This document shows, piece after piece, positions 1,811 to 13,856 of a stretch of DNA of 64,000 nt. Each line of letters begins with the position of its first letter. The stretch's first letter is position 1. The translations under genes and the position numbers were made by a program. The notes under the pieces are model-generated. The model worked only from the letters and a program-made list of their open reading frames with translations. It searched no databases and was not told the DNA's origin. The DNA comes from an uncultured Chloroflexia bacterium (lineage in GTDB: Bacteria; Chloroflexota; Limnocylindria; Limnocylindrales; CSP1-4), in NCBI GenBank assembly GCA_963828165.1, contig CAWHDR010000001.1, forward strand, positions 768,001 through 832,000. Reading direction: 5' to 3'.

Positions 1811-4531
1811 TCAGTCTGCGACCTCGACGACGAGGCTGCCGACCATCCCCGCTTCCGCGTGGCCCTCGACCGTGCACTCCACGACGTAGGTCCCCGGCTC
1901 ATCGATCGTGAACCTGATCCGCTGCGTCTGGCCGGGGCGTGCTCCGGCGTCGACGTTGGCGAGACCGGTCAACTCCCAGTCATGGAAGATCGGGTCGTCG
2001 TTCGTGAACTCGAGGACGACCGTCTCGCCGGCACGTACGCGGAGGTCGGCCGGCATGAACGCGACGCGCTCGGCGGTCACTTCGAGCTTGGTCGCATTCG
2101 CGTCGATGATCCGGTCGGCCGCCATCACGCCGCCAGCCAGCGCGAGCGACGCGAGCGCGATCGCGCCGAGGAACCAGGCCTCGCGCAGGTGCCCCAGCGG
2201 CCCGTGCCGGCCGACTCGGTGGACCGCCTCGGGACGGGCGTCGTACCCGCGCAGCCGGAGCGAGTTGGCGACCACGGACACCGATGAGAGGGCCATCGCA
2301 CCCGCGGCGAGCGCCGGCGAGAGCGTGATCCCAAAGGCCGGGTAGAGGGCGCCCATCGCGACGGGGATCAGCAGGACGTTGTAGGCGAATGCCCAGAACA
2401 GGTTCTGGCGGATGACCGTCATCGTCGCCCGGGACAATCCGATGGCGGCTGGGACCCCGCGCGGGTCGCCGCCGATCAGCGTCACGTCGGACGCCTCGAT
2501 CGCCACGTCCGCGCCGGTGCCGATCGCGATCCCGAGATCCGCCTGGGCGAGCGCCGGGGCGTCGTTGATGCCGTCGCCGACCATCGCTACCGTCCGGCCG
2601 CGGGCCTGGAGCCGCTCCACGATCGCGGCCTTGTCGGCGGGGAGCGTCTCGGGCACGACGTTGTGGGCCGGGATGCCGACCTGCTTGGCGACGGACTCAG
2701 CGGTGGCGCGGGCGTCGCCGGTCACGAGCCAGACCTCGATGTTCGCGCCGGCCAGCTCGCGTACCGCAGCCTGGGCTTCGACCTTGACGGGGTCGCTGAT
2801 CGCGAGCATCCCGGCCGCCACGCCGTCCACGGCGACGATGGCGATCGTCCGGCCCGCCCTCGCCGAAGCCTCGATCGCATCTGCCAGCGGCGCCAGGTCG
2901 ATCCCACCACGCTCGAGCAGCCGACGATTGCCGACGATGACCATGCGGGGCCCGCTGGTCGTCTCGACCGTTCCTTGCACACCGCCACCGATGACCGCCG
3001 CGAAATCCGTGACCCGCCCGAACCCGACCTCGTCCTGGTTCGCGCGGGCGACGATGGCCGCCCCGAGCGGGTGCTCGCTTGCGCGCTCGATCGCTCCGCC
3101 GAGATCGAGCACGTCGTGCACCGTGAAGCCGGGGGCGACGGCGACCTCGGCGACGGTGGGACGCCCGAGGGTCAACGTTCCGGTCTTGTCGAGCACGACG
3201 GTGTCCACGCGATGGGCGATCTCGAGCGCCGCACCGCCCCGGATGAGGATCCCCGCCTCCGCCCCACGTCCCGTCCCGACCATGATGGCCGTGGGGGTGG
3301 CGAGGCCCATCGCGCACGGACACGCGATGACCACGACGCCGATGAACGCCGTCAGTGCCAGCGTGATGCGCGGTTCCGGTCCGAACGCCAGCCATACGAG
3401 GAACGTCCCCGCAGCAACGACGAGGACGATCGGGACGAAGACCTCGGCGATGCGATCGGCCAGGCGCTGGATGGGAGCCTTGCTGCCCTGGGCCCGACTC
3501 ACGAGGTCCACGATCCGGGCGAGCGCGGTGTCGCGGCCCACGCGGGTCGCCCGCATGACGAACGTGCCGGTCGTGTTGAGGGTCGCACCGATGACCTCGG
3601 CGCCGGCGGTCACCTCGACCGGCATGGCCTCGCCGGTCAGCATGCTGGCATCGATCGCGGACCCACCCTCGACCACCACGCCGTCGACGGGCAGCCGCTC
3701 CCCGGGCCGGACGCGCAGCAGGTCACCGACCGCCACCGCCTCGAGCGCTACGTCTTCTTCGCGTCCGTCGGTCACGCGCCGGGCGACCGCGGCCTGCAGT
3801 CCGACGAGCCGCCGGATCGCCCCGGTCGTGCTGGTCTTGGCGCGATGCTCGAGCCACCGGCCGAGCAGGACGAGCCCGACGATGATCGTCGACGAGTCGA
3901 AGTAGGTCTCCGGGTGCAGCCCGGCCTCGTGGATGACCTCGGGAAAGAACGTGACGAAGACGCTGTACAGCCAGGCCGCGCTCGTGCCGACCGCCACGAG
4001 GGTGTCCATGTTGGCGGTGCGATGCCGGGCGGCCCGCCACGCGGCGCGATAGAAGCGGCGCCCGGCCCACGCCTGGATGATGGTGGCCGGCCCGAGCGCG
4101 AGCCAGTTGATGCTCTCCATCGCGACGCTCGTCTGCGGGACGAACATCGCGACCATGATCGCGAGGGCCACCCCGATCGAGACGACCGCCTCGCGAAGCA
4201 GCGAGCGCTCCTCGCGGGCGCGGTCGGCATCGCCGGCGGAGAGCTCCTCGAGCAGGGGGACCGGGGAGGCGTCGGCGTCGCCGTCCCGTCCCGCGACCGT
4301 GCGGACGTCGTACCCGGCTGCCTCCACGGCTTCGACCAGGTCGGCGCGAGCGGCCACGTCCGGGAGGTAGCGGATCGTCGCCATCTCCGTGGCGAGGTTC
4401 ACGCTCGCCGTCTGGACGCCTTCGGTGCGGTTCAGGAACCGCTCGATGCGATTGACGCAAGACGCGCACGTCATGCCCTCGATGGGCAGCTCGATCTCGG
4501 TGGGAGCGGCGTCAGGCCGGCCGGTCGTCAT
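1811..4531 (-). CDS. copA: Cu(I)-translocating P1B-type ATPase with extra C-terminal TM helix and cupredoxin domain
   Basis: GMTCASC HMA domain; CPCAMGLATP, DKTGT, SEHPL, GDGINDAP, YN and MALSS ligands; C-terminal H...CTVEGHAEAGM. Confidence 0.93.
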   Translation of the reverse strand: MTTGRPDAAPTEIELPIEGMTCASCVNRIERFLNRTEGVQTASVNLATEMATIRYLPDVAARADLVEAVEAAGYDVRTVAGRDGDADASPVPLLEELSAGDADRAREERSLLREAVVSIGVALAIMVAMFVPQTSVAMESINWLALGPATIIQAWAGRRFYRAAWRAARHRTANMDTLVAVGTSAAWLYSVFVTFFPEVIHEAGLHPETYFDSSTIIVGLVLLGRWLEHRAKTSTTGAIRRLVGLQAAVARRVTDGREEDVALEAVAVGDLLRVRPGERLPVDGVVVEGGSAIDASMLTGEAMPVEVTAGAEVIGATLNTTGTFVMRATRVGRDTALARIVDLVSRAQGSKAPIQRLADRIAEVFVPIVLVVAAGTFLVWLAFGPEPRITLALTAFIGVVVIACPCAMGLATPTAIMVGTGRGAEAGILIRGGAALEIAHRVDTVVLDKTGTLTLGRPTVAEVAVAPGFTVHDVLDLGGAIERASEHPLGAAIVARANQDEVGFGRVTDFAAVIGGGVQGTVETTSGPRMVIVGNRRLLERGGIDLAPLADAIEASARAGRTIAIVAVDGVAAGMLAISDPVKVEAQAAVRELAGANIEVWLVTGDARATAESVAKQVGIPAHNVVPETLPADKAAIVERLQARGRTVAMVGDGINDAPALAQADLGIAIGTGADVAIEASDVTLIGGDPRGVPAAIGLSRATMTVIRQNLFWAFAYNVLLIPVAMGALYPAFGITLSPALAAGAMALSSVSVVANSLRLRGYDARPEAVHRVGRHGPLGHLREAWFLGAIALASLALAGGVMAADRIIDANATKLEVTAERVAFMPADLRVRAGETVVLEFTNDDPIFHDWELTGLANVDAGARPGQTQRIRFTIDEPGTYVVECTVEGHAEAGMVGSLVVEVAD

Positions 4532-4550
4532 ACTCCAGGGGAGTATAGCA
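4530..4550 (-). promoter_or_regulatory. CsoR-like operator palindrome overlapping an extended -10 of copA
   Basis: ATACTCC-AGG-GGAGTAT at 4530-4546; the minus strand reads TGCTATACTCCCCTGGAGT-ATG. Confidence 0.7.
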
Positions 4551-4593
4551 GACGGTGCCTGGGGATCAGCCAAGGAGGTGGCACACTAGACCG

Positions 4594-5246: not shown

Positions 5247-7073
5247 ATGAGCGTCGCGAGCGCGCCTGCCCCATCCATGTTCGCCGTGTTCCGGCGGCGC
5301 GACTTCTCCATGCTCTGGCTGGCGCAGCTCATCTCGACGGCCGGATCGTCACTGACGGACCTCGCCGCGGGCATCTACGTGTACCGCGAGACCCAGTCCG
5401 CGCTCGCCGTGGGCCTGACCCTGATGGTCACGGCCATCCCGAGCCTCATCGTCGGCCTGCTCGCCGGCGTCTACGTCGATCGCCACGATCGCAAGCGGAT
5501 CCTCATCGGGACCTGCCTGATCCAGGCAGTCATCGTGGCTGCCCTCGCGTTCGTGATCGGGATCGAATCGATCGCCCTCCCGGGGCTGTACGTCCTGCTT
5601 CTCCTCAATGCGGGCGTGAAGCAGTTCTTCGATCCCGCCCATGACAGCCTGATCCCGGAGATGGCGAGCGACGAGGAGCTCGCAGGGGCGAACTCGTTCC
5701 TCTCCATCGCCTCATTCGGCTCGACGGCCATCGGCTTCGCGGGCGCGGGCCTCCTGGCCAGCACCGTCGACCTGACCTGGGCGTTCATCATCGATGCGGC
5801 CTCCTTCGTCGTCTGCGCGGGGCTCATCGCGCTGATGGGCCGCTATCCCATGCCCAAGCCGGAGGACGACGCGACCGTCGCCGTGATCGTGGCCAACTTG
5901 AAATCGGGTATGGCGACGCTGTTCGGGACACCGGCGCTGCGATCGCTGTTCGTCGTCGGTGCCTTCATGTTCGTCTCGTTCGGCCTGTGGAACGTACTCC
6001 TGCTTCCGTTCTCCATCCGCGAGCTCGGGGCCACCGAGTTCGAGTACGGCCTGCAGGAGGGGCTGACGTCGGTCGGCTTCGTGCTGGGCTCGTTCTTCAT
6101 GGCGCGCTTCTCGAGCCGCCTGCCGGAGCCGCTCTGGATCGTCATCGGCCTCATCGGCATGGGTGCAGCGGGGATCTTCTATGGCCTCGCGACGTCGATC
6201 CCCCTGGCGATCGTGCTCGTGATGATCAGCGGCTTCTTCAACTCTCCTTCGTCGGTAGCACGGTCGGTGCTCCTCCAGCGGCACACGCCGCGTGAGATGC
6301 GGGGCCGCGTGTTCTCCGCCTTTTATGTCATGCGCGACATCATCTTCCTGATCGGCATGGCCGGCGCCGGGCTCGCCGATATCGTCGACATCCGGCTCCT
6401 GATCGTGGTCGCCTCCACGCTGCTGTTCGTGTCCGCCGCGTTCACGCTGGTGGCACCCGGGCTCGGGCTGGCATCGATCCGAGCGGCGAACGCCCGTCTG
6501 CGGGACGCCGAGGCCCCGGCCATGGACGCGACACCGGTGCGACCCGCGACCGTGCCCGACTTCGGCCGCGTGGCGCTCCGCCTGCCGCCCATGTCACGCT
6601 TGTCCGCGGAGCAGCGCGACGCGTTCCTGCACGACGCGACCATCCGGCAGGTGCCGGCGGGTACCCGGGTGGTCGAACGGGGCGACGTCGCGAGCTCGGC
6701 GTACTTCATCCTCGAGGGCAACGCGACCGCCGGGATCCCCGATGAGGACGGATATCGTGGCCTTTCGACCATGGGCGCCGGCGACTTCTTCGGGGAGATC
6801 GCGGCGCTGACCGGGAGTCCGCGCACCGCCGACGTCGTGGCCGATACCGACCTGACGGTGATGGAGGTGCCGGCCGAGGCGCTGCGCGCGGTGATGACGG
6901 TGCCGGAGATCCGCAAGCTCGTCCTCTCGACGCTGACCTCCCGGCTGGTGAGGACCGAGGCGGCGGACCTGCCGCGGCTGGCCGGCATCGACCAGGAGTC
7001 GTTGCGCGACCTGCGCACGCCCCGACGGATCGTGGTCGCATCGGCGGGAACCGCGGCGGACGATGCTTCATAG
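5247..7073 (+). CDS. MFS transporter fused to a C-terminal cyclic-nucleotide-binding domain
   Basis: About 12 hydrophobic segments and AGVYVDRHDRKR motif A; C-terminal GDFFGEIAALTGSPRTADV phosphate-binding cassette. Confidence 0.9.
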   Translation: MSVASAPAPSMFAVFRRRDFSMLWLAQLISTAGSSLTDLAAGIYVYRETQSALAVGLTLMVTAIPSLIVGLLAGVYVDRHDRKRILIGTCLIQAVIVAALAFVIGIESIALPGLYVLLLLNAGVKQFFDPAHDSLIPEMASDEELAGANSFLSIASFGSTAIGFAGAGLLASTVDLTWAFIIDAASFVVCAGLIALMGRYPMPKPEDDATVAVIVANLKSGMATLFGTPALRSLFVVGAFMFVSFGLWNVLLLPFSIRELGATEFEYGLQEGLTSVGFVLGSFFMARFSSRLPEPLWIVIGLIGMGAAGIFYGLATSIPLAIVLVMISGFFNSPSSVARSVLLQRHTPREMRGRVFSAFYVMRDIIFLIGMAGAGLADIVDIRLLIVVASTLLFVSAAFTLVAPGLGLASIRAANARLRDAEAPAMDATPVRPATVPDFGRVALRLPPMSRLSAEQRDAFLHDATIRQVPAGTRVVERGDVASSAYFILEGNATAGIPDEDGYRGLSTMGAGDFFGEIAALTGSPRTADVVADTDLTVMEVPAEALRAVMTVPEIRKLVLSTLTSRLVRTEAADLPRLAGIDQESLRDLRTPRRIVVASAGTAADDAS

Positions 7074-7075
7074 GG

Positions 7076-7142
7076 TGTGTCACAGCTGACAGGCGCCACG
7101 TCGCGCGCTGGCCTTGGCTCGCCGAGGGACTGGGCGTACAGT
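7076..7142 (+). promoter_or_regulatory. Putative sigma70 promoter with upstream Crp-like box for the small peptide gene
   Basis: TGTGT-N6-TGACA at 7076-7091 (2 mismatches to TGTGA-N6-TCACA); TTGGCT(7114)-N17-TACAGT(7137-7142). Confidence 0.5.
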
Positions 7143-7184
7143 CCGCAGATCAGACCGCTGGACGAGGGACGAAAGGGGCCGGAC

Positions 7185-7397
7185 ATGGTGCGACAGAGGA
7201 TGAAGCTCCCCAAGGATCAGGCCTTGGAACCCGCGGACGTTGGGCCCAGCGCGACCGGCACCGAGGACGACGTCGAGGGCCACGGTTTTCCGGTGACGGC
7301 ACCTCCGAATCCGGTCATCGGCCGCGGCACCGGACATGGCGGGGAAGCGACCCCGACCGAGGAGGACGCGACCGACGTCAAGGGGAACCTGCGCTAG
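7185..7397 (+). CDS. Small acidic 70-aa protein, candidate precursor peptide (EDDVEGH ... TDVKGN)
   Basis: GAAAGGGG RBS before the ATG at 7185; GC3-biased codons; flanked by its own promoter and terminator. Confidence 0.7.
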   Translation: MVRQRMKLPKDQALEPADVGPSATGTEDDVEGHGFPVTAPPNPVIGRGTGHGGEATPTEEDATDVKGNLR

Positions 7398-7427
7398 TAA
7401 CGATCTGTCGCTGCACCGACATCGTGG

Positions 7428-7456
7428 CGACCACCCGGGCCGGGGTGGTCGTTTCG
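7428..7456 (+). terminator. Intrinsic terminator-like hairpin after the peptide gene
   Basis: CGACCACCC-loop-GGGTGGTCG followed by TTTCG; lies between convergent genes. Confidence 0.6.
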
Positions 7457-7458
7457 AT

Positions 7459-8274
7459 TCAGGCCGGCGTGCTGGCCGTCGCCGCGAGGAGCGCCTTGAT
7501 CTCGAACGGCGTGGCCGCCGCATAGCGCGACCGCAGGCGCGCGGCCTGGGCTGCCAGATGGGGCGCCGCGAACGAGTTGCCCGTTGCCCGGATCCGCCCG
7601 CCATCGCGCCAGGGCACGTCCACGTCGACACCGAAGGCCCCGAATTCCACCGGTGGCGAAGGGTTGTAGAACCAGGCGTCCGGATCGGGGATGTCGTGCG
7701 CGGCAACCGACACGACGGCGGCGAAGAGCGAGGGATACGAGGGGCCTGGGACGTTGTTCGCTGCACAGACCAGCAGGACGTTGGCAAAATACGCCCGATC
7801 CGCGAGCTCGTGGAATGCGCTGAACATCGCCTCGCTCCGAGAGGACAGGCTCAGGTTCACGACCCCAATTCGCTGTTCGATCGCCCACTCGACGGCCGCG
7901 GCGACGGCCCGGCCCTTGCCGCGGTTGTCCGCGCCGAGGACCCGGATCGACACCAGTTCGACCGCCGGCGCGATGCCCGCGATGATGCCGGCGCACGCAG
8001 TCCCGTGCCCGACGAGGTCGGCGCCTTGCGGGTCGTCGACGACTGCGGCGTCCTCACCGTCGATGTCCACGCGCATGCGGCGCGTGACGCGCCCCCGGAC
8101 GCCGGGGTGATCCGCGTCGACCCCCGAATCGACGATGGCCACGACGACACCGGCGCCATCGGTTTCCCCGAAGACCGCGTCACGATCCAGCCGGCCGAAT
8201 GGCCCGTCCCGCGTGAGCCCGGCCCGCGCGTCCGCGGCGAAGGCCTCGCTCCAGGCCGGCAGGGTCACGGTCAT
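7459..8274 (-). CDS. S8 (subtilisin-like) serine peptidase, minimal and without signal peptide
   Basis: IVDSG (Asp), HGTACAG (His), GNSFAAP (Ser) and AANN oxyanion Asn. Confidence 0.9.
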   Translation of the reverse strand: MTVTLPAWSEAFAADARAGLTRDGPFGRLDRDAVFGETDGAGVVVAIVDSGVDADHPGVRGRVTRRMRVDIDGEDAAVVDDPQGADLVGHGTACAGIIAGIAPAVELVSIRVLGADNRGKGRAVAAAVEWAIEQRIGVVNLSLSSRSEAMFSAFHELADRAYFANVLLVCAANNVPGPSYPSLFAAVVSVAAHDIPDPDAWFYNPSPPVEFGAFGVDVDVPWRDGGRIRATGNSFAAPHLAAQAARLRSRYAAATPFEIKALLAATASTPA

Positions 8275-9092
8275 CGGCGGGGCCCCGATCCGGAGCCGCG
8301 GTGGGGCGGGCGTCGGCGGAGCAATGCCTCGAGCCAGTCTGCCGCGAGCTCGATCGAATCCGGATCGACGTCGCGCAGCCGCGCGATCTGGTCGGCCAGC
8401 CGCCAGGTCGGGTCCTCGGGATCGGTCGACAGGGCCCGCGTCGCGTCGCTGACGAGCGCATCGATCGCCGTGTCGTCGAGCGCCCGCTCACCGGTCTCCG
8501 TACCGTCCCGCGCGGCGAGCGCGGCGAGCGCGACGAGGGCGGCGCGCAGGAGCGAGACCGCGTCCCCGGCCGAGCGACGGCGTCGGACGAGCGTCGTCGC
8601 CGCGGACGCAAGGACGCCCGCGATCTCGAGGTCGCGCAGGGTGAACGTCCCGCCGCGCCGGTCGAGGACCTCCAGCACGCCGATCGTGCCGTCCGCGTCG
8701 CTGAGCGGTGTCGCGAGGATGGACGCGGGGACATAGCCGGTGGCCTCGGCGATGGTGCGGTCGAATCGAGGATCGGTCGTCACGTCCGCGATCGCGAGTT
8801 GCTGGCCGGTCGTGAACGCGTAGCCCGCGATCCCCGCAGCCGGATCCAGCTGCATCCCGATCACGTCGCCGCCGGCCGAACCCGCGCTGGCGAGGAACAC
8901 CAGACGGTCGGCGGTGGGGTCGTGGACCGCGACCGAGGCCGCCTGGGCGTCGAGCACGACCGTCGCCGTCGTCACGATCGTCGCGAGGAGGTCGTCATCG
9001 GCGACGGGGGTGATCCGCTGGGCCGCCTCCAGGCGCCGCGCCACCGCAGCGATGGCCAGCAGCGTCTCGTCGGCCGCTCGGCGCTCGGTCAC
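8271..9092 (-). CDS. Stand-alone GAF domain protein
   Basis: GIAGYAFTTGQQLAIADVTTDPRF...SILATPL...IGVLEVLD is a GAF signature; 4-bp overlaps with both neighbours. Confidence 0.85.
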   Translation of the reverse strand: MTERRAADETLLAIAAVARRLEAAQRITPVADDDLLATIVTTATVVLDAQAASVAVHDPTADRLVFLASAGSAGGDVIGMQLDPAAGIAGYAFTTGQQLAIADVTTDPRFDRTIAEATGYVPASILATPLSDADGTIGVLEVLDRRGGTFTLRDLEIAGVLASAATTLVRRRRSAGDAVSLLRAALVALAALAARDGTETGERALDDTAIDALVSDATRALSTDPEDPTWRLADQIARLRDVDPDSIELAADWLEALLRRRPPHRGSGSGPRR

Positions 9093-9820
9093 CGGCGCGC
9101 AGCTGCGGCCAACCGGGCCGCGTCCGGGATCACGAGATCGTCGCCCTCGAAGCGCAGCAGCCCCTGTGCCACGAAATCCGCGAGCAGGCGGTTCACCGAT
9201 TGGCGCGAACCGCCGATCATCCCGGCGAGCTCGCCCTGCGTGTACGGCCAGGGCAGACGCTGCTCGCCCGTCTCGATCCGTGGCGGCCAGGACCCGCCAT
9301 CGTCACCGCCCGGTAACGCGCGCAGGAGGTGGCGCGCCAGTCGCCCTGGCAGGTCCAGGAAGTGGAGGTCACCGAATTGGGCGGTCAGGCGGCGGATCTC
9401 GGTCGCCAGGGCAGCCAGCAACGCGCGTCGAAGGACCGGCTGCTCGTCCACGAGTCGGTCGAAGGCGTCGCGACGCAGGACCTGGGTCTCCACGACACCG
9501 ACCGCGACCGCCGTCGCGGACCGGGCGGCCCCATCGAGCAGGGCCAGCTCACCGAAGAACCCACCAGGCGCGATCGTCGTCAGGATCGCGGGGTCGGATC
9601 CGTCGCCCGGCGGGATCGTGATCTTCACCCGACCCGAGGTCACGATGAACAAGGCGTCGCCGGGGTCGTCCACGTGGAAGATCGTCTCTCCGCGGCGAAA
9701 GCGGCGCGGTCCGAGCGCTGCGGCCACGATGCCCAGGATCGGCTCGTCGAGACCGGAGAACAGGCGACATTCGCGCAGGGCGTCTTGCGCCAGCGCGGTG
9801 TCTCCGGATCGGGCGACCAT
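9089..9820 (-). CDS. Crp/Fnr family transcriptional regulator
   Basis: GGFFGELALLDGAARSATA cNMP cassette; HTH TQGELAGMIGGSRQSVNR; TACGAT 7 nt upstream suggests a leaderless start at 9820. Confidence 0.92.
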   Translation of the reverse strand: MVARSGDTALAQDALRECRLFSGLDEPILGIVAAALGPRRFRRGETIFHVDDPGDALFIVTSGRVKITIPPGDGSDPAILTTIAPGGFFGELALLDGAARSATAVAVGVVETQVLRRDAFDRLVDEQPVLRRALLAALATEIRRLTAQFGDLHFLDLPGRLARHLLRALPGGDDGGSWPPRIETGEQRLPWPYTQGELAGMIGGSRQSVNRLLADFVAQGLLRFEGDDLVIPDAARLAAAARR

Positions 9821-9867
9821 GTCGCCCATCGTACGCGGGCGGGGATCCCGGCGCGGGGCCGGGGGCT

Positions 9868-10542
9868 TCAGGATCGGGGGATCGGGCGCATCGGGTAGAC
9901 GCCCACGACGACCGGCGTCCGCGGATCGAGCGACAGCTCATAGCCGATCTCGCCGCCACGCAGCAACTCGCCCAGGAGGGAGCCTTCCCGCGATGGCAGG
10001 CCGACGTACACCTTGCCCTGCTCGATCGAGACCTGGGTGACGTCGTCGTCGTCACCGTCGATCGCGAAGCGGCGTCGCAGCTCGTGCATGGGCACGTACG
10101 GGCGGCTCTTGATGAACCGACGGAGCTGTGGCGCGGTACAGCCGTTCGATCGCTCCTGGCCGTTGGCCCCCGCGGGACCATGGCCGTTGGTCGGCCCGGG
10201 ACCGTGGCCGTTGGGGCGTCCGTTGGGGCCGACGGGCGACGGTACCGATCGGTCCCGTCCCATGCCTGCCATGCGCGGCTGTCCGCCCGGGGCAGGTGGC
10301 GGCGGGGGGGCGGTACGCGCGGTGGCGTCGGACTGGGGTCGCTGGTCCTCGGATCGCGGTGCCGCGTGGTCGTGTGACGTTCGCGGCCCTGCGGCGGCCG
10401 TGGCATCGACGGGCAGCGGTGGCTCGCCGTTCGTGTCGACCGGCACGGGCGGTACGCCGGGCCCGGGCCCGGGCGTATGGCGCGCGGGGTCATGACGGTA
10501 CCGGCCGCCCCCGTGCGATCGGCCGTGGTGGCGGCGACTCAT
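9868..10542 (-). CDS. Hypothetical protein with Pro/Gly-rich disordered N-terminus and compact C-terminal domain
   Basis: The C-terminal ~90 aa (QLRRFIKSRPYVPMHELRRRF...VVGVYPMRP) look globular with normal codon usage; start uncertain. Confidence 0.6.
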   Translation of the reverse strand: MSRRHHGRSHGGGRYRHDPARHTPGPGPGVPPVPVDTNGEPPLPVDATAAAGPRTSHDHAAPRSEDQRPQSDATARTAPPPPPAPGGQPRMAGMGRDRSVPSPVGPNGRPNGHGPGPTNGHGPAGANGQERSNGCTAPQLRRFIKSRPYVPMHELRRRFAIDGDDDDVTQVSIEQGKVYVGLPSREGSLLGELLRGGEIGYELSLDPRTPVVVGVYPMRPIPRS

Positions 10543-10697
10543 CGGTGGGCGAACCCGGGATGGGCATCCCGGGCGAGTAGCTCGGCGACGGAACGTCGCC
10601 GTTGGTTGGTGGGCATCGGATCTCAGGTGCTGGGCGGGCCGCTTGGATACGGCACGGTCCCGATGATACCGCACGTGTCCGCCGGTGCCGTCGGCGG

Positions 10698-11855: not shown

Positions 11856-12220
11856 GCTCCGATCTCCGCCGGCCGCGCGAGCCACGCCGTGATGGCCGCC
11901 GGCCCGTCGTCGAACAGCTTGCGGTACGCGTAGACACGATCGGCGCCCGCGGTGAGGGCCCGTTTGCGCAGCTCGTGGTCGTCGTGCTGTCCGACCGCGA
12001 GCACCCGCAGGCCGGCGGTGTGCGCCCGTTCGATCGCGGTCACGCCATCGTAGGCGAGCGCGGTCAGGTCGACGATCGCGGCATCGCTCCCCACCAGGGC
12101 GGCCGCGAATCGCTCCGGAGAGGCCACGCGCACGGGCTCGGCGCCGGCCGCCTCGACAGCCCGGGCCAGACGATCCGCCCAGATGAGGTCCTGGGCGAGG
12201 ACGACCACGCGGGCCGTCAC
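11852..12220 (-). CDS. Atypical receiver-domain (CheY-like) protein
   Basis: VVVLAQDL...AAIVDL...ALTAGADRV pattern without the full acidic pocket or conserved Lys; translationally coupled in the operon. Confidence 0.6.
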   Translation of the reverse strand: MTARVVVLAQDLIWADRLARAVEAAGAEPVRVASPERFAAALVGSDAAIVDLTALAYDGVTAIERAHTAGLRVLAVGQHDDHELRKRALTAGADRVYAYRKLFDDGPAAITAWLARPAEIGA

Positions 12221-12729
12221 GACGAGGCGCGATCCATCGACGACGCCAGGTGGTGGAACACGTCACGCGCGGTGACGACGCCGGTCGGGCGACCGTCCTC
12301 GACGATCGGGATGTGGCGGAATCCCCCGACGGCCATCTTGTGGATGGCGACCGCGATCGGGTCGTCGTGGCGGAGCACGACCGGGTCGGGGGTCATGAAA
12401 TCGCGGACGTGGAAGGAATCCAGACGCTTGCCGGCGGCCTTCACCACCGCGTCGCGGTCAGTGAAGATGCCCACCAGGCGATCGTCCGTCATGACGAGGA
12501 GGCAATCGGTCTCGGCATCGTGCATCCGCGCGATCGCGACGTCGAGCGGCGTGTCCGGCGTGACGGTGATAGGCGCCGGCGCACCCAGCCGATCGAGGTG
12601 CTCGCCCATCAGTTCGCCCTTGAACGCGGGTGCCTGCCCCGGGGTGTCGTGGCCGAAGATGTCCGCCCCGCAGTTGTCGCAGATATCGGCGCCGATCAGG
12701 TTCTCATAGCCGCACGACGGGCAGCGCAT
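12217..12729 (-). CDS. Zinc-ribbon plus tandem CBS domain protein
   Basis: CPSCG..N..GADICDNCG followed by LVGIFTDRD and GFRHIPIV CBS pair. Confidence 0.88.
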   Translation of the reverse strand: MRCPSCGYENLIGADICDNCGADIFGHDTPGQAPAFKGELMGEHLDRLGAPAPITVTPDTPLDVAIARMHDAETDCLLVMTDDRLVGIFTDRDAVVKAAGKRLDSFHVRDFMTPDPVVLRHDDPIAVAIHKMAVGGFRHIPIVEDGRPTGVVTARDVFHHLASSMDRASS

Positions 12730-12779
12730 GCCGTCGCCGCCGGCTTCCTGCCCCGCGACGATGCCGTCTTCGCCGCCGT

Positions 12780-13856
12780 CTACTCGACCGTCCATGTCTC
12801 TCCGCCGGCAAGCACACGTTCGAGGTCGCCGGGTCCTGACCGCGCGATCGCGGCCGACACCTGGTCCTCGAGGAGGCGGTCATGGGTCGGCCGGGTGATG
12901 GCGCGCAGGACGCCGACCGGTACCGGGAAGTCCGGCCAGAACATGCGCGAGAGGACGAGGGCGAGATACGGGTCCTCGGCCGTCTCGTCGTGGACCAGCA
13001 GGTCGGCTTCCGTGACGCCGTTCTCGCCGATCGTCACGACCTCGGGCTTGAGGCCATCGAGCCGGATGCCCTTGTCGCGATCCTTGCCGAAGATCATCGG
13101 CTTGCCGTGCTCGAGGAACAGCATCCGGTCCTCGCGGACCTCACGGTCGGTGAAGTCCCGCCAGGCACCGTCGTTGAAGATGTTGCAGTTCTGGAGGACC
13201 TCGATGAACGAGGAGCCCTTGTGGCGACCGCCGCGCTCGAGCGTCTGCTGCAGATGCTCGGTGTGGGTGTCGACCGAGCGGGCCACGAACGAGGCCTCGG
13301 CCGCGAGCGCGATCGTGAGCGGGATGATCGGCGTGTCGATCGAGCCGACCGGGGTCGACTTGGTCTTCTTCCCGAACTCCGACGTGGGCGACGCCTGGCC
13401 CTTGGTCAGCCCGTAGATGCGGTTGTTGAACATCACCATGTTGATGTCGACATTGCGCCGCATCGAGTGGATGACGTGGTTGCCACCGATGCTGAGCGCG
13501 TCGCCGTCACCGGTGATGACCCAGACCATCAGGTCCGGGCGGGCAGCCTTCAAGCCCGTGGCCAGCGTGGGGGCGCGGCCGTGGATCGTGTGGAAGCCGT
13601 ACGTGTTCATGTAGTACGGCAGGCGCCCGGAGCAGCCGATGCCGCTGATGAAGACGATGTCCTCCCGCTTGTACCCGAAGTCGGGCATGACCTTCTGGGT
13701 CTGGGCAAGGATCGAGTAGTCCCCGCAGCCCGGACACCAGCGAACCTCCTGGTCGGACACGAAGTCCTTGCGCGTGAGCGCGATGATCTCGGCGTTCTCT
13801 GCACTGAGTGCAGGCTGCGCCGGGACGGGCGTCTGCCCGTTCGTCTCCGTGGTCAT
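12780..13856 (-). CDS. korB: 2-oxoacid:ferredoxin oxidoreductase beta subunit
   Basis: RWCPGCGD, SGIGCS, IHGR and GDGD...NNRIYGLTKGQ ThDP motif. Confidence 0.93.
   Translation of the reverse strand: MTTETNGQTPVPAQPALSAENAEIIALTRKDFVSDQEVRWCPGCGDYSILAQTQKVMPDFGYKREDIVFISGIGCSGRLPYYMNTYGFHTIHGRAPTLATGLKAARPDLMVWVITGDGDALSIGGNHVIHSMRRNVDINMVMFNNRIYGLTKGQASPTSEFGKKTKSTPVGSIDTPIIPLTIALAAEASFVARSVDTHTEHLQQTLERGGRHKGSSFIEVLQNCNIFNDGAWRDFTDREVREDRMLFLEHGKPMIFGKDRDKGIRLDGLKPEVVTIGENGVTEADLLVHDETAEDPYLALVLSRMFWPDFPVPVGVLRAITRPTHDRLLEDQVSAAIARSGPGDLERVLAGGETWTVE

Follow-up and report, generated by a model that had tools for sequence, protein, structure and literature searches.

Proteases of the S8 (subtilisin-like) family act on ribosomally made precursors in several described systems. 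Kex2 and the prohormone convertases belong to this family and dice tandem-repeat precursors, such as yeast alpha-factor, at a short motif, by which many copies are freed, and QhpE, a short S8 protein that has neither a signal peptide nor a prodomain, trims the QhpC leader during the maturation of quinohemoprotein amine dehydrogenase. LanP-type leader peptidases likewise place an S8 fold on a ribosomal peptide; among them ElxP, from the epilancin 15x pathway, is cytoplasmic and recognises (D/E)(L/V)xxQ, while the cyanobactin proteases PatA/PatG act on PatE, a multi-core precursor with a repeated short motif, PatA recognising G(L/V)E(A/P)S and cutting after its last residue (as given in the available sections of PMC10885120). 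The Bacillus-type intracellular subtilisin proteases (ISPs) are cytoplasmic S8 enzymes with a short conserved N-terminal extension and an inhibitory LIPY pro-peptide (available sections of PMC6220982). Here we report a five-gene locus within a 64,000-nt stretch of DNA, referred to below as the window (CAWHDR010000001.1 positions 768,001-832,000, assembly GCA_963828165.1), from an uncultured Chloroflexia bacterium of the Limnocylindrales CSP1-4 lineage. The sequence comparisons argue that its five genes form a real conserved module, consisting of a small peptide with a DVEGH motif, a cytoplasmic S8 protease, a GAF-domain partner, a Crp-family regulator, and a major facilitator superfamily (MFS) transporter fused to a cyclic nucleoside monophosphate (cNMP) binding domain.

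By analogy, the S8 protease of this locus would work most like ElxP/LanP or like PatA with PatE, and Kex2 would be a distant analogue. The ElxP site, with D/E at -5, L/V at -4 and Q at -1, aligns with the D-V/T-x-G-H motif found here (available sections of PMC10885120). Unlike the LanP/ElxP systems, the module has no lanthionine synthetase or other modifying enzyme, its precursors are virtually devoid of Cys and may carry many copies, the predicted P1 residue is His, the protease has a GAF partner, and the exporter is of the MFS rather than the ABC type. Unlike PatA/PatG, it has no heterocyclase, macrocyclase, or DUF domains and occurs in other host phyla. The resemblance to QhpE lies in the short S8 protein, which scores below the QhpE cut-off and has no qhp genes seen beside it. 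Kex2 is a eukaryotic protease of the secretory pathway and cuts at dibasic sites, whereas the module is bacterial and would act in the cytoplasm at an acidic-Gly-His site. The ISPs, in contrast, are general stationary-phase proteases with no GAF partner, dedicated peptide, or exporter. For the exporter, the analogous case is HetC of Nostoc PCC 7120, which is a precedent for a sensor-fused peptide exporter in that its cNMP-fold sensor domain is needed in vivo; HetC differs in being an ABC/C39 protein whose N-terminal domain bound ppGpp, whereas here the transporter is an MFS protein with a C-terminal domain and the protease is encoded by a separate gene (available sections of PMC10986499). The features that are new in the module are its GAF partner, triple sensor wiring, an exporter of the MFS type, D(V/T)xGH as the site, and the absence of a modifying enzyme, and no description of the module or the motif was found in a literature search that left most subscription journals and supplements outside its reach.

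Gene layout of the locus

An earlier note on this DNA, made from the letters alone, had recognised the five genes; an open reading frame (ORF) check and Pfam searches confirmed both their places and their domain assignments. The features are as follows.

5247..7073, plus strand: MFS transporter (DHA3-like) with a C-terminal cytoplasmic cNMP-binding domain, the proposed exporter; 608 aa; Pfam MFS_1, MFS_3, cNMP_binding
7076..7091, no strand assigned: Crp/FNR-type palindromic box TGTGTCACAGCTGACA; 8/10 to TGTCA-N6-TGACA, also a perfect TGTCA-N4-TGACA
7185..7397, plus strand: precursor-like peptide of the 'pep70' type; 70 aa; no Pfam or NCBIfam family
7426..7452, plus strand: terminator-like hairpin (11 bp, GC-rich) with UUUCGAUUC behind it, in the gap that separates the convergent genes for the peptide and S8
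7459..8274, minus strand: leaderless subtilisin-like serine protease (S8) without a prodomain, the proposed site-specific peptidase; 271 aa; Peptidase_S8
8271..9092, minus strand: GAF-domain protein, the proposed sensor partner of S8; 273 aa; Pfam GAF/GAF_2
9089..9829, minus strand: Crp/FNR-family transcription factor; 246 aa; cNMP_binding and HTH_Crp_2

The S8 and GAF ORFs overlap by 4 nt, as do the GAF and Crp ORFs, which makes translational coupling of the Crp-GAF-S8 ORFs plausible. The window has a G+C content of about 70%, and its closest relatives are soil genome bins of Limnocylindria (Chloroflexota). Two of the 11 cNMP_binding matches in the whole genome fall inside the locus, and a six-frame search of its 3.31 Mb for DVEGH found the only small-ORF case there, the other three occurrences sitting in long frames; the clustering therefore exceeds chance.

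Co-occurrence of the five genes in two phyla

Three scans for S8 relatives yielded loci from Limnocylindria and Actinomycetota, among which a family locus was defined by an S8 match with 45% or more identity across 180 or more residues. The resulting 128 loci encode GAF in 127 cases, always adjacent to S8, Crp in 120, and MFS in 110, and the acidic D(V/T/A)xGH motif is present in 119 of them, 110 having it two or more times. Three further family loci with a fragmented S8 gene (L021, L024, L157) were placed in the control set. When the strict motif was considered, it was found in 23 of 25 loci with a close S8 protein, compared with one chance-like match in 27 distant-S8 loci. Gene order differs between the phyla: in Limnocylindria, crp-GAF-S8 is convergent to the peptide and MFS genes, a repeat protein being encoded upstream of crp in addition to the peptide or in its place, whereas Actinomycetota typically have the order MFS-cNMP, GAF, S8, crp, repeat peptide. 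The earlier expectation that these genes belong together was thus upheld, in that both phyla keep S8, GAF, Crp, and MFS-cNMP in company with D(V/T)xGH ORFs, often with a linked cyclase gene.

Inherited gene order without any common function would be a trivial explanation, and unrelated MGMT, CopA, and M24 genes are indeed also syntenic within Limnocylindria. However, the second phylum has the same five parts in a different arrangement and the remaining neighbours do not recur there: the set that includes the Actinomycetota loci gave 1 match for CopA, 1 for MGMT, 4 each for hyp268 (a hypothetical gene of the window) and M24, and none for the CBS-pair gene, and its hyp268, M24, and CopA matches belong to Chloroflexota loci (CopA to L210, from Limnocylindrales). 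CopA, MGMT, hyp268, M24, and CBS were accordingly rejected as module parts, their linkage being restricted to Limnocylindria. Since its parts recur across phyla in different order and the other neighbours are unlinked, the module, as judged from gene content, is made up of five parts and the rest is lineage synteny. The tree of S8 proteins and the motif search, described below, speak against mere gene order as well, which leaves this explanation with a negligible probability.

The reverse search started from the motif. In 185,579 species genomes, an exact search for pairs of DVEGH codon runs separated by 18-48 nt gave at least 120 such stretches; among the matches listed, all 80 come from Actinomycetota or Chloroflexota, including several cultured strains, and 66 of these 80 have a module gene within their 2-kb flanks (S8 in 55, GAF in 55, Crp/cNMP in 55, MFS in 21), so that the motif leads back to S8.

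In a FastTree phylogeny of 129 S8 rows, drawn with midpoint rooting, the two phyla separate with 4-5 label changes and Gaiellaceae/Solirubrobacterales fall outside the main split. Because the tree largely separates the phyla, the association looks old rather than recently transferred. Within the class, an S8 orthologue was found in 80 of 201 sampled genomes, or in 78 of 199 when two unpublished genomes (G087 and G123, which enter this tally only) are left out; by family the counts are 32/60, 47/66, 0/66, 0/7, and 0/1, and 8 of 12 genomes from the same genus carry it. This spread marks the S8 gene as accessory. Cultured carriers include Nocardioides mangrovi GBK3QG-3, N. tweenelious CN2-186, Marmoricola sp. 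RAF53, and Geodermatophilus sp. CPCC 205761. A search of sequencing runs for the locus listed no RNA run and returned soil DNA runs only, at a small share.

Peptide precursors and the D(V/T)xGH motif

The peptide gene is a real coding gene: its frame is kept in 28 orthologues, and in each of the 17 invariant residue columns 2-5 synonymous codons are in use; among the 57 ungapped codon columns, 39, 36, and 57 are variable at positions 1, 2, and 3, respectively. A Shine-Dalgarno-like AAAGGGG lies 6 nt upstream of its ATG. The pep70 profile, run against 1.84 billion proteins, found 62 representative relatives at E<=0.001, 27 of them at E<=1e-10. The peptide starts with an MVRQRMK-LPKD leader, followed by DDVEGH (codons 7269-7283), a Pro/Gly-rich middle part with an invariant HGGE, and a C-terminal DVKGN-LR (7374-7388). 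In sequence terms, this succession of leader, recognition site, and core fits a precursor of the RiPP-like (RiPPs being peptides made on the ribosome and modified after translation) or pheromone type. Residues D29-V30-E31-G32-H33-G34 are invariant in the independently aligned family of 28 orthologues, and 11 of these have a second DVEGH at the C-terminal site, with 2-5 residues after it. The peptide of the window is a single-core form with one canonical and one degenerate site, while precursors in relatives reach up to 15 near-identical repeats. The 251-aa protein P0041, an apparent fusion, looks like a mis-called ORF running from the end of MFS through the peptide. No family was found for DVxGH proteins when seven of them were compared with Pfam and six with NCBIfam, except for stray repeat matches of the protein from L015.

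The anatomy of the motif was analysed in ORFs with two or more motifs, which gave 475 unique contexts, by means of a search pattern that itself fixed P6, P5, P2, and P1. Acidity rises upstream of the motif (D 30% and E 19% at P8, D 43% and E 27% at P7). P4 is V, T, or A overall, with 81% V and 17% T in these contexts, P3 is variable (mainly E, also Q, A, T, and others), and the residues past His vary and are often basic or small. Pro never occurs at P1' (0/475), yet it makes up 5.1% of the repeat regions and is found at P3' in 61 of the 475 contexts; an acidic residue occupies P1' only once (1/475). A textbook subtilase site is bound through the side chains at P4 and P1, P2 being small and P3 unconstrained, and Pro does not occupy P1'. 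As the motif fits this P5-P1 anatomy, avoids Pro at P1', and shares its frame with the ElxP and PatA sites, the comparison points to a cut after the His of D(V/T)xGH. Covariation of P4 (Val vs Thr) with columns of the S8 alignment had too little power, with only 6 independent pairs.

Several repeat proteins are encoded upstream of crp (L119 3459-4382, L084 3876-4289, L078 3683-3982, and L015 3401-4300), and what follows their last DVEGH is a conserved tail, roughly 45 residues long and helical-looking (…LAR.RE..IQR…). Repeat proteins of the convergent, downstream type end in …SRGE, and the window has no protein of the upstream type. In some Actinomycetota, a single DVEGHG, DVDGHG, or DVAGHG followed by F or L precedes a hydrophobic stretch resembling a membrane span (L153 2379-3164 on the minus strand; L025 3048-3413 on the plus and 1493-2371 on the minus strand); judged by this motif, the protease may also act on the tails of membrane proteins.

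The repeat regions consist of 29.3% Asp+Glu and 7.4% His, with 0.05% Cys. Such acidic, His-bearing units could serve as a metallophore or metal buffer, which would make the module one of metal homeostasis, and a CopA-type copper ATPase (HMA and cupredoxin domains) is encoded two genes away in Limnocylindria. However, the linkage to CopA does not extend to the Actinomycetota loci, as described above, and the regulators conserved with the module are sensors of the nucleotide type, with no metal regulator among them. We regard a dedicated metal function as improbable, although it would be compatible with cleavage and export of the peptide.

S8 protease

The S8 protein matches Peptidase_S8 (PF00082; 1.8e-29, 103.4 bits against a cut-off of 21.8) and is thus a member of this family, present as a single copy in its genome. 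The full D/H/S triad seen in the earlier note is borne out by the invariance of D49, H90, and S234, together with the oxyanion residue N174, across 54 orthologues. The same note had read the protein as lacking a signal peptide and a prodomain, with which our inspection of the translation, made with no signal-peptide tool, agrees: the N-terminus has no hydrophobic or twin-arginine stretch and no extension of prodomain size. Its closest PDB relative by sequence is subtilisin BPN', compared with which the 156-166 loop is shortened, the S1 and S4 pockets not being readable without coordinates; a solved intracellular subtilisin protease (7y6m) is also among the PDB matches (5.4e-31). A protein atlas returned only Chloroflexota clusters without names (score 0.84).

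Known specialised S8 proteases were considered as identities and rejected. QhpE (NF049966) is the top NCBIfam match (5e-32), but it scores 111 bits against a cut-off of 165. The mycosin model (TIGR03921) gave 108.9 bits against 278.75, and the translation has no signal peptide or anchor and the gene no ESX neighbours. The PatA/PatG cyanobactin protease model (TIGR03895) gave 17.8 bits against 421.05. A LanP/ElxP-type leader peptidase is not indicated either, as no synthetase recurs with the module and the repeat regions contain almost no Cys.

Residues 1-39 form an N-terminal extension that is highly conserved in both phyla, with invariant P6, A7, W8, and F12 in a LPAWS...F motif; judged by this conservation, it could be an autoinhibitory or a GAF-docking segment. 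The extension is reminiscent of the inhibitory LIPY pro-peptide in Bacillus intracellular subtilisins (available sections of PMC6220982).

A complex of S8 with peptide residues 14-48 was predicted using alignments of our own, that of S8 among them. The score was 0.52 (runs 0.48, 0.52, and 0.57), compared with 0.18 for the best of three controls; between runs, contacts agree to at least 72%, and the predicted local distance difference test (pLDDT) value of the partner is at least 45. In a benchmark of this score, 116 of 157 solved complexes attained the pass mark, as did 2 of 215 mismatched pairs; at scores of 0.60 or less, only 18 of those 157 solved complexes reached it, as did both mismatches. 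The model may also remember solved subtilisin-peptide complexes. The prediction lends weak support to S8-peptide binding. Regarding the earlier proposal that S8 cuts at D-V-x-G-(H/N), the conservation of the motif and the lack of Pro behind its His agree with a subtilase site, and the complex prediction raises the odds slightly; cleavage itself is what we infer.

The same observations bear on a different role of the peptide, as a trans-acting inhibitor, pseudo-substrate, or folding helper of S8, with other proteins being the substrates of the GAF-S8 pair. A protease that has no prodomain could use such a helper, its N-terminal extension is highly conserved, and the predicted complex puts the peptide on S8 and is silent on cutting. 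An inhibitor, however, would need neither up to 15 repeats nor the avoidance of Pro at P1', and it would leave the linked exporter unexplained, so that we give this role about the same low probability as a dedicated metal function.

Regulatory regions of the peptide gene

The box TGTGTCACAGCTGACA at 7076-7091 lies 3 nt past the MFS stop codon and 94 nt upstream of the peptide ATG. It is the only match of at least 8/10 to the Crp consensus between positions 4500 and 11000, the whole 64-kb window having four, and its variant is common to the close kin of the window (L001, L002, L011, L016). Among 66 TGTCA-N6-TGACA sites (at least 9/10) in 1.46 Mb of sequence, 51 fall 30-400 nt upstream of the first motif codon, a zone that amounts to 52.7 kb or 3.6% of that sequence. 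When the motif-anchored loci are included, the count rises to 82 sites in 75 loci, their median distance being 158.5 nt (interquartile range 138.5-181.5), and the box is kept at one distance in both phyla. The classical CRP consensus TGTGA-N6-TCACA was a poorer fit than TGTCA-N6-TGACA and was set aside. Downstream of the gene, region 7392-7465 folds with -33 kcal/mol (z -2.17), and the U-tract of its hairpin is weak. The earlier note had assigned the peptide its own promoter and terminator: what stands is the Crp-type box and the 11-bp hairpin with its weak U-tract, and what does not is a recognisable promoter, as a scan for sigma-70-like elements upstream of the peptide gene found none.

Sensor domains and exporter

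The Crp protein belongs to the Crp/FNR family (cNMP_binding 5.7e-22, HTH_Crp_2 7.4e-14); 66.3 bits against 266 do not make it an equivalog of E. coli CRP. The transporter matches MFS_1 (1.4e-33, 116.8 bits against a cut-off of 33.4) and cNMP_binding (3.3e-18, residues 467-550); its best NCBIfam match, the DHA3-like subfamily TIGR00900, reached 200.7 bits against a cut-off of 319.6 and was not assigned. Read from the translations, both cNMP domains keep a Gly-Glu ... Arg-(Ser/Thr)-Ala motif, which we take to be the phosphate-binding cassette. In the predicted structure of the GAF protein (mean pLDDT 82.1; predicted TM score, pTM, 0.63), an N-terminal helix is followed by the GAF domain, a long helix (152-195), and a three-helix C-terminal bundle. 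By profile and predicted structure, its nearest relative is the HD-GYP GAF 4mcw, and next come the cAMP/cGMP-binding GAF domains of CyaB2, Lcd1, and PDE2/5/10 (1ykd; 5w10 with cAMP). A fold search with this model matched GAF domains only and gave no match for the C-terminal helical bundle.

A class III cyclase domain lies inside the ~12.8-kb locus, within about 6 kb, in 52 of 131 family loci from both phyla. The window has no cyclase gene, and its genome (3.3 Mb) has 11 elsewhere. In two close kin, a cyclase gene is found directly upstream of crp (L011, 3870-4292; L016, 3788-4288), and in one Actinomycetota locus a PAS-GAF histidine kinase and a response regulator are encoded directly upstream of GAF-S8-crp (L023, 3295-5225, plus strand).

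The fused architecture of the exporter is retained over large distances: the MFS-cNMP protein of the Actinomycetota locus L023 is about 26% identical to that of the window, and among 97 S8 loci of Limnocylindria and related groups, MFS is contiguous with a cNMP domain in 79, present alone in 6, and missing in 12, many of which are loci truncated by contig ends. In Limnocylindria, loci whose MFS is at least 50% identical to that of the window comprise 27 with a pep70-type, 2 with a repeat-type, and 20 with an unclassified peptide, and loci with MFS identity below 40% comprise 0, 27, and 4, respectively. This correspondence of MFS subtype and peptide type fits an exporter-cargo match and is confounded by kinship.

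The exporter data also bear on a reading as regulated intracellular proteolysis, according to which the DVxGH protein would be a cytoplasmic disordered regulator or anchor, or in some relatives the cytoplasmic tail of a membrane protein, that the GAF-S8 pair destroys or releases upon a nucleotide signal, and MFS-cNMP would move a small molecule. The single-motif proteins with a transmembrane-like stretch in L153 and L025 would suit this reading, as would the conserved helical tail found in repeat proteins of the type encoded upstream of crp, a hint at a part that folds or interacts, and the peptides show no evident export signal. On the other hand, an efflux-type MFS (TIGR00900/EntS/Mef-like) is kept in 110 of the 128 loci across both phyla, its subtype tracks the peptide type, and up to 15 near-identical units resemble cargo more than a regulator. 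We therefore consider regulated proteolysis unlikely, and still the more probable alternative to cleavage and export than the metal and inhibitor roles.

Proposed mechanism and its weighing

In the mechanism that we propose, the Crp-family regulator would bind the palindrome upstream of the small gene and turn on the peptide. The cytoplasmic S8 protease, made together with its GAF partner, would then cut directly after the His of D-(V/T)-x-G-H, with D at P5, V/T at P4, G at P2, and His at P1. The peptide of the window would be cut once after His33, a second cut at the degenerate DVKGN being possible, and in relatives a polyprotein of up to 15 repeats would be diced into peptides of 12-40 residues. 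The freed fragment would be exported by MFS, with its cytoplasmic cNMP domain as the gate. All three sensor domains would answer one nucleotide second messenger, most likely cAMP or cGMP produced by class III cyclases. The exported peptide could be a signal or an acidic, His-bearing metal binder. The sequences show the genes, their domains, their co-occurrence in two phyla, the conserved operator, and the anatomy of the motif, from which cleavage, export of the product, and cAMP/cGMP as the ligand are inferred.

A ribosomal peptide of the RiPP type, in the strict sense, had been entertained before and does not hold, as no modifying enzyme is conserved with the module: across phyla only Crp, GAF, S8, MFS-cNMP, the peptide, and often a cyclase recur, and a strict RiPP cluster was rejected on this ground. 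Given this gene content and the scarcity of Cys, the products would be unmodified peptides rather than strict RiPPs.

Several observations weigh against the proposed mechanism. The complex score of 0.52 falls in a range in which a pass counts as weak, and the prediction came without an interface. The second site of the window peptide is degenerate (DVKGN), its Crp box matches the consensus at only 8/10 positions, and no sigma-70-like promoter was found upstream of its gene. Domains of the cNMP fold can take other ligands, such as ppGpp in HetC and 2-oxoglutarate in NtcA (available sections of PMC10986499). Nine of the 128 family loci have no motif ORF, four of these being short, and 14 of the 80 tandem-repeat loci among the matches listed have no module gene within 2 kb. 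When five genomes with unlinked repeats were searched whole, four had S8 elsewhere (E<=2.9e-89), which speaks for the link, and the fifth, an Acidimicrobiaceae bin, gave no S8 with this query, which speaks against it. The co-occurrence counts come from related genomes and are not independent events, and the operator consensus was refined after the sites had been seen, so that, the genomes being related as well, the operator numbers overstate independence.

Taking these points together with the conservation data, we give the reading as a whole, in which the peptide is cut at the motif and exported upon a cyclic-nucleotide signal, an even chance of being right. A more specific, prohormone-like version, in which cAMP/cGMP acts on transcription through Crp, on a GAF-controlled subtilase, and on a cNMP-gated MFS, and unmodified peptides are released as signals or metal binders, is held more tentatively, at a little under even.

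If the mechanism is true, it would define a new class of ribosomal peptides made by proteolysis only, together with a new site-specific protease that cuts after Asp-Val/Thr-x-Gly-His, the first subtilase with a GAF partner, and an MFS exporter of peptides that a nucleotide gates. Such a protease, whose site spans five residues and whose P1' is free except for Pro, could serve in tag removal. The module is common in abundant and poorly known soil bacteria (Limnocylindria, Actinomycetota), and its cultured carriers make the system directly testable.

Neighbouring genes

A known anti-phage defence system was considered and rejected, as PADLOC run on the window gave domain-level matches only (the cNMP domain to Pycsar effectors, and a generic subtilase) and no system-specific match. 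The copper-type P-type ATPase CopA is encoded at 1811-4573 on the minus strand and carries an HMA domain at the N-terminus and a cupredoxin/plastocyanin-like domain (Cupredoxin_1, residues 820-905) at the C-terminus; its synteny with the module is limited to Limnocylindria. On the other side, directly upstream of crp, lies hyp268 (9868-10674, minus strand), an ORF of at most 268 aa that Pfam and NCBIfam assign to no family and whose C-terminal stretch, roughly 100 residues long, is conserved. Relatives have the gene for the repeat protein in the interval from hyp268 to crp, and in Actinomycetota hyp268 is unlinked to the module. Farther away, at 12217-12795 on the minus strand, a CBS-pair protein with an N-terminal zinc-ribbon is encoded, which is syntenic in Limnocylindria only.

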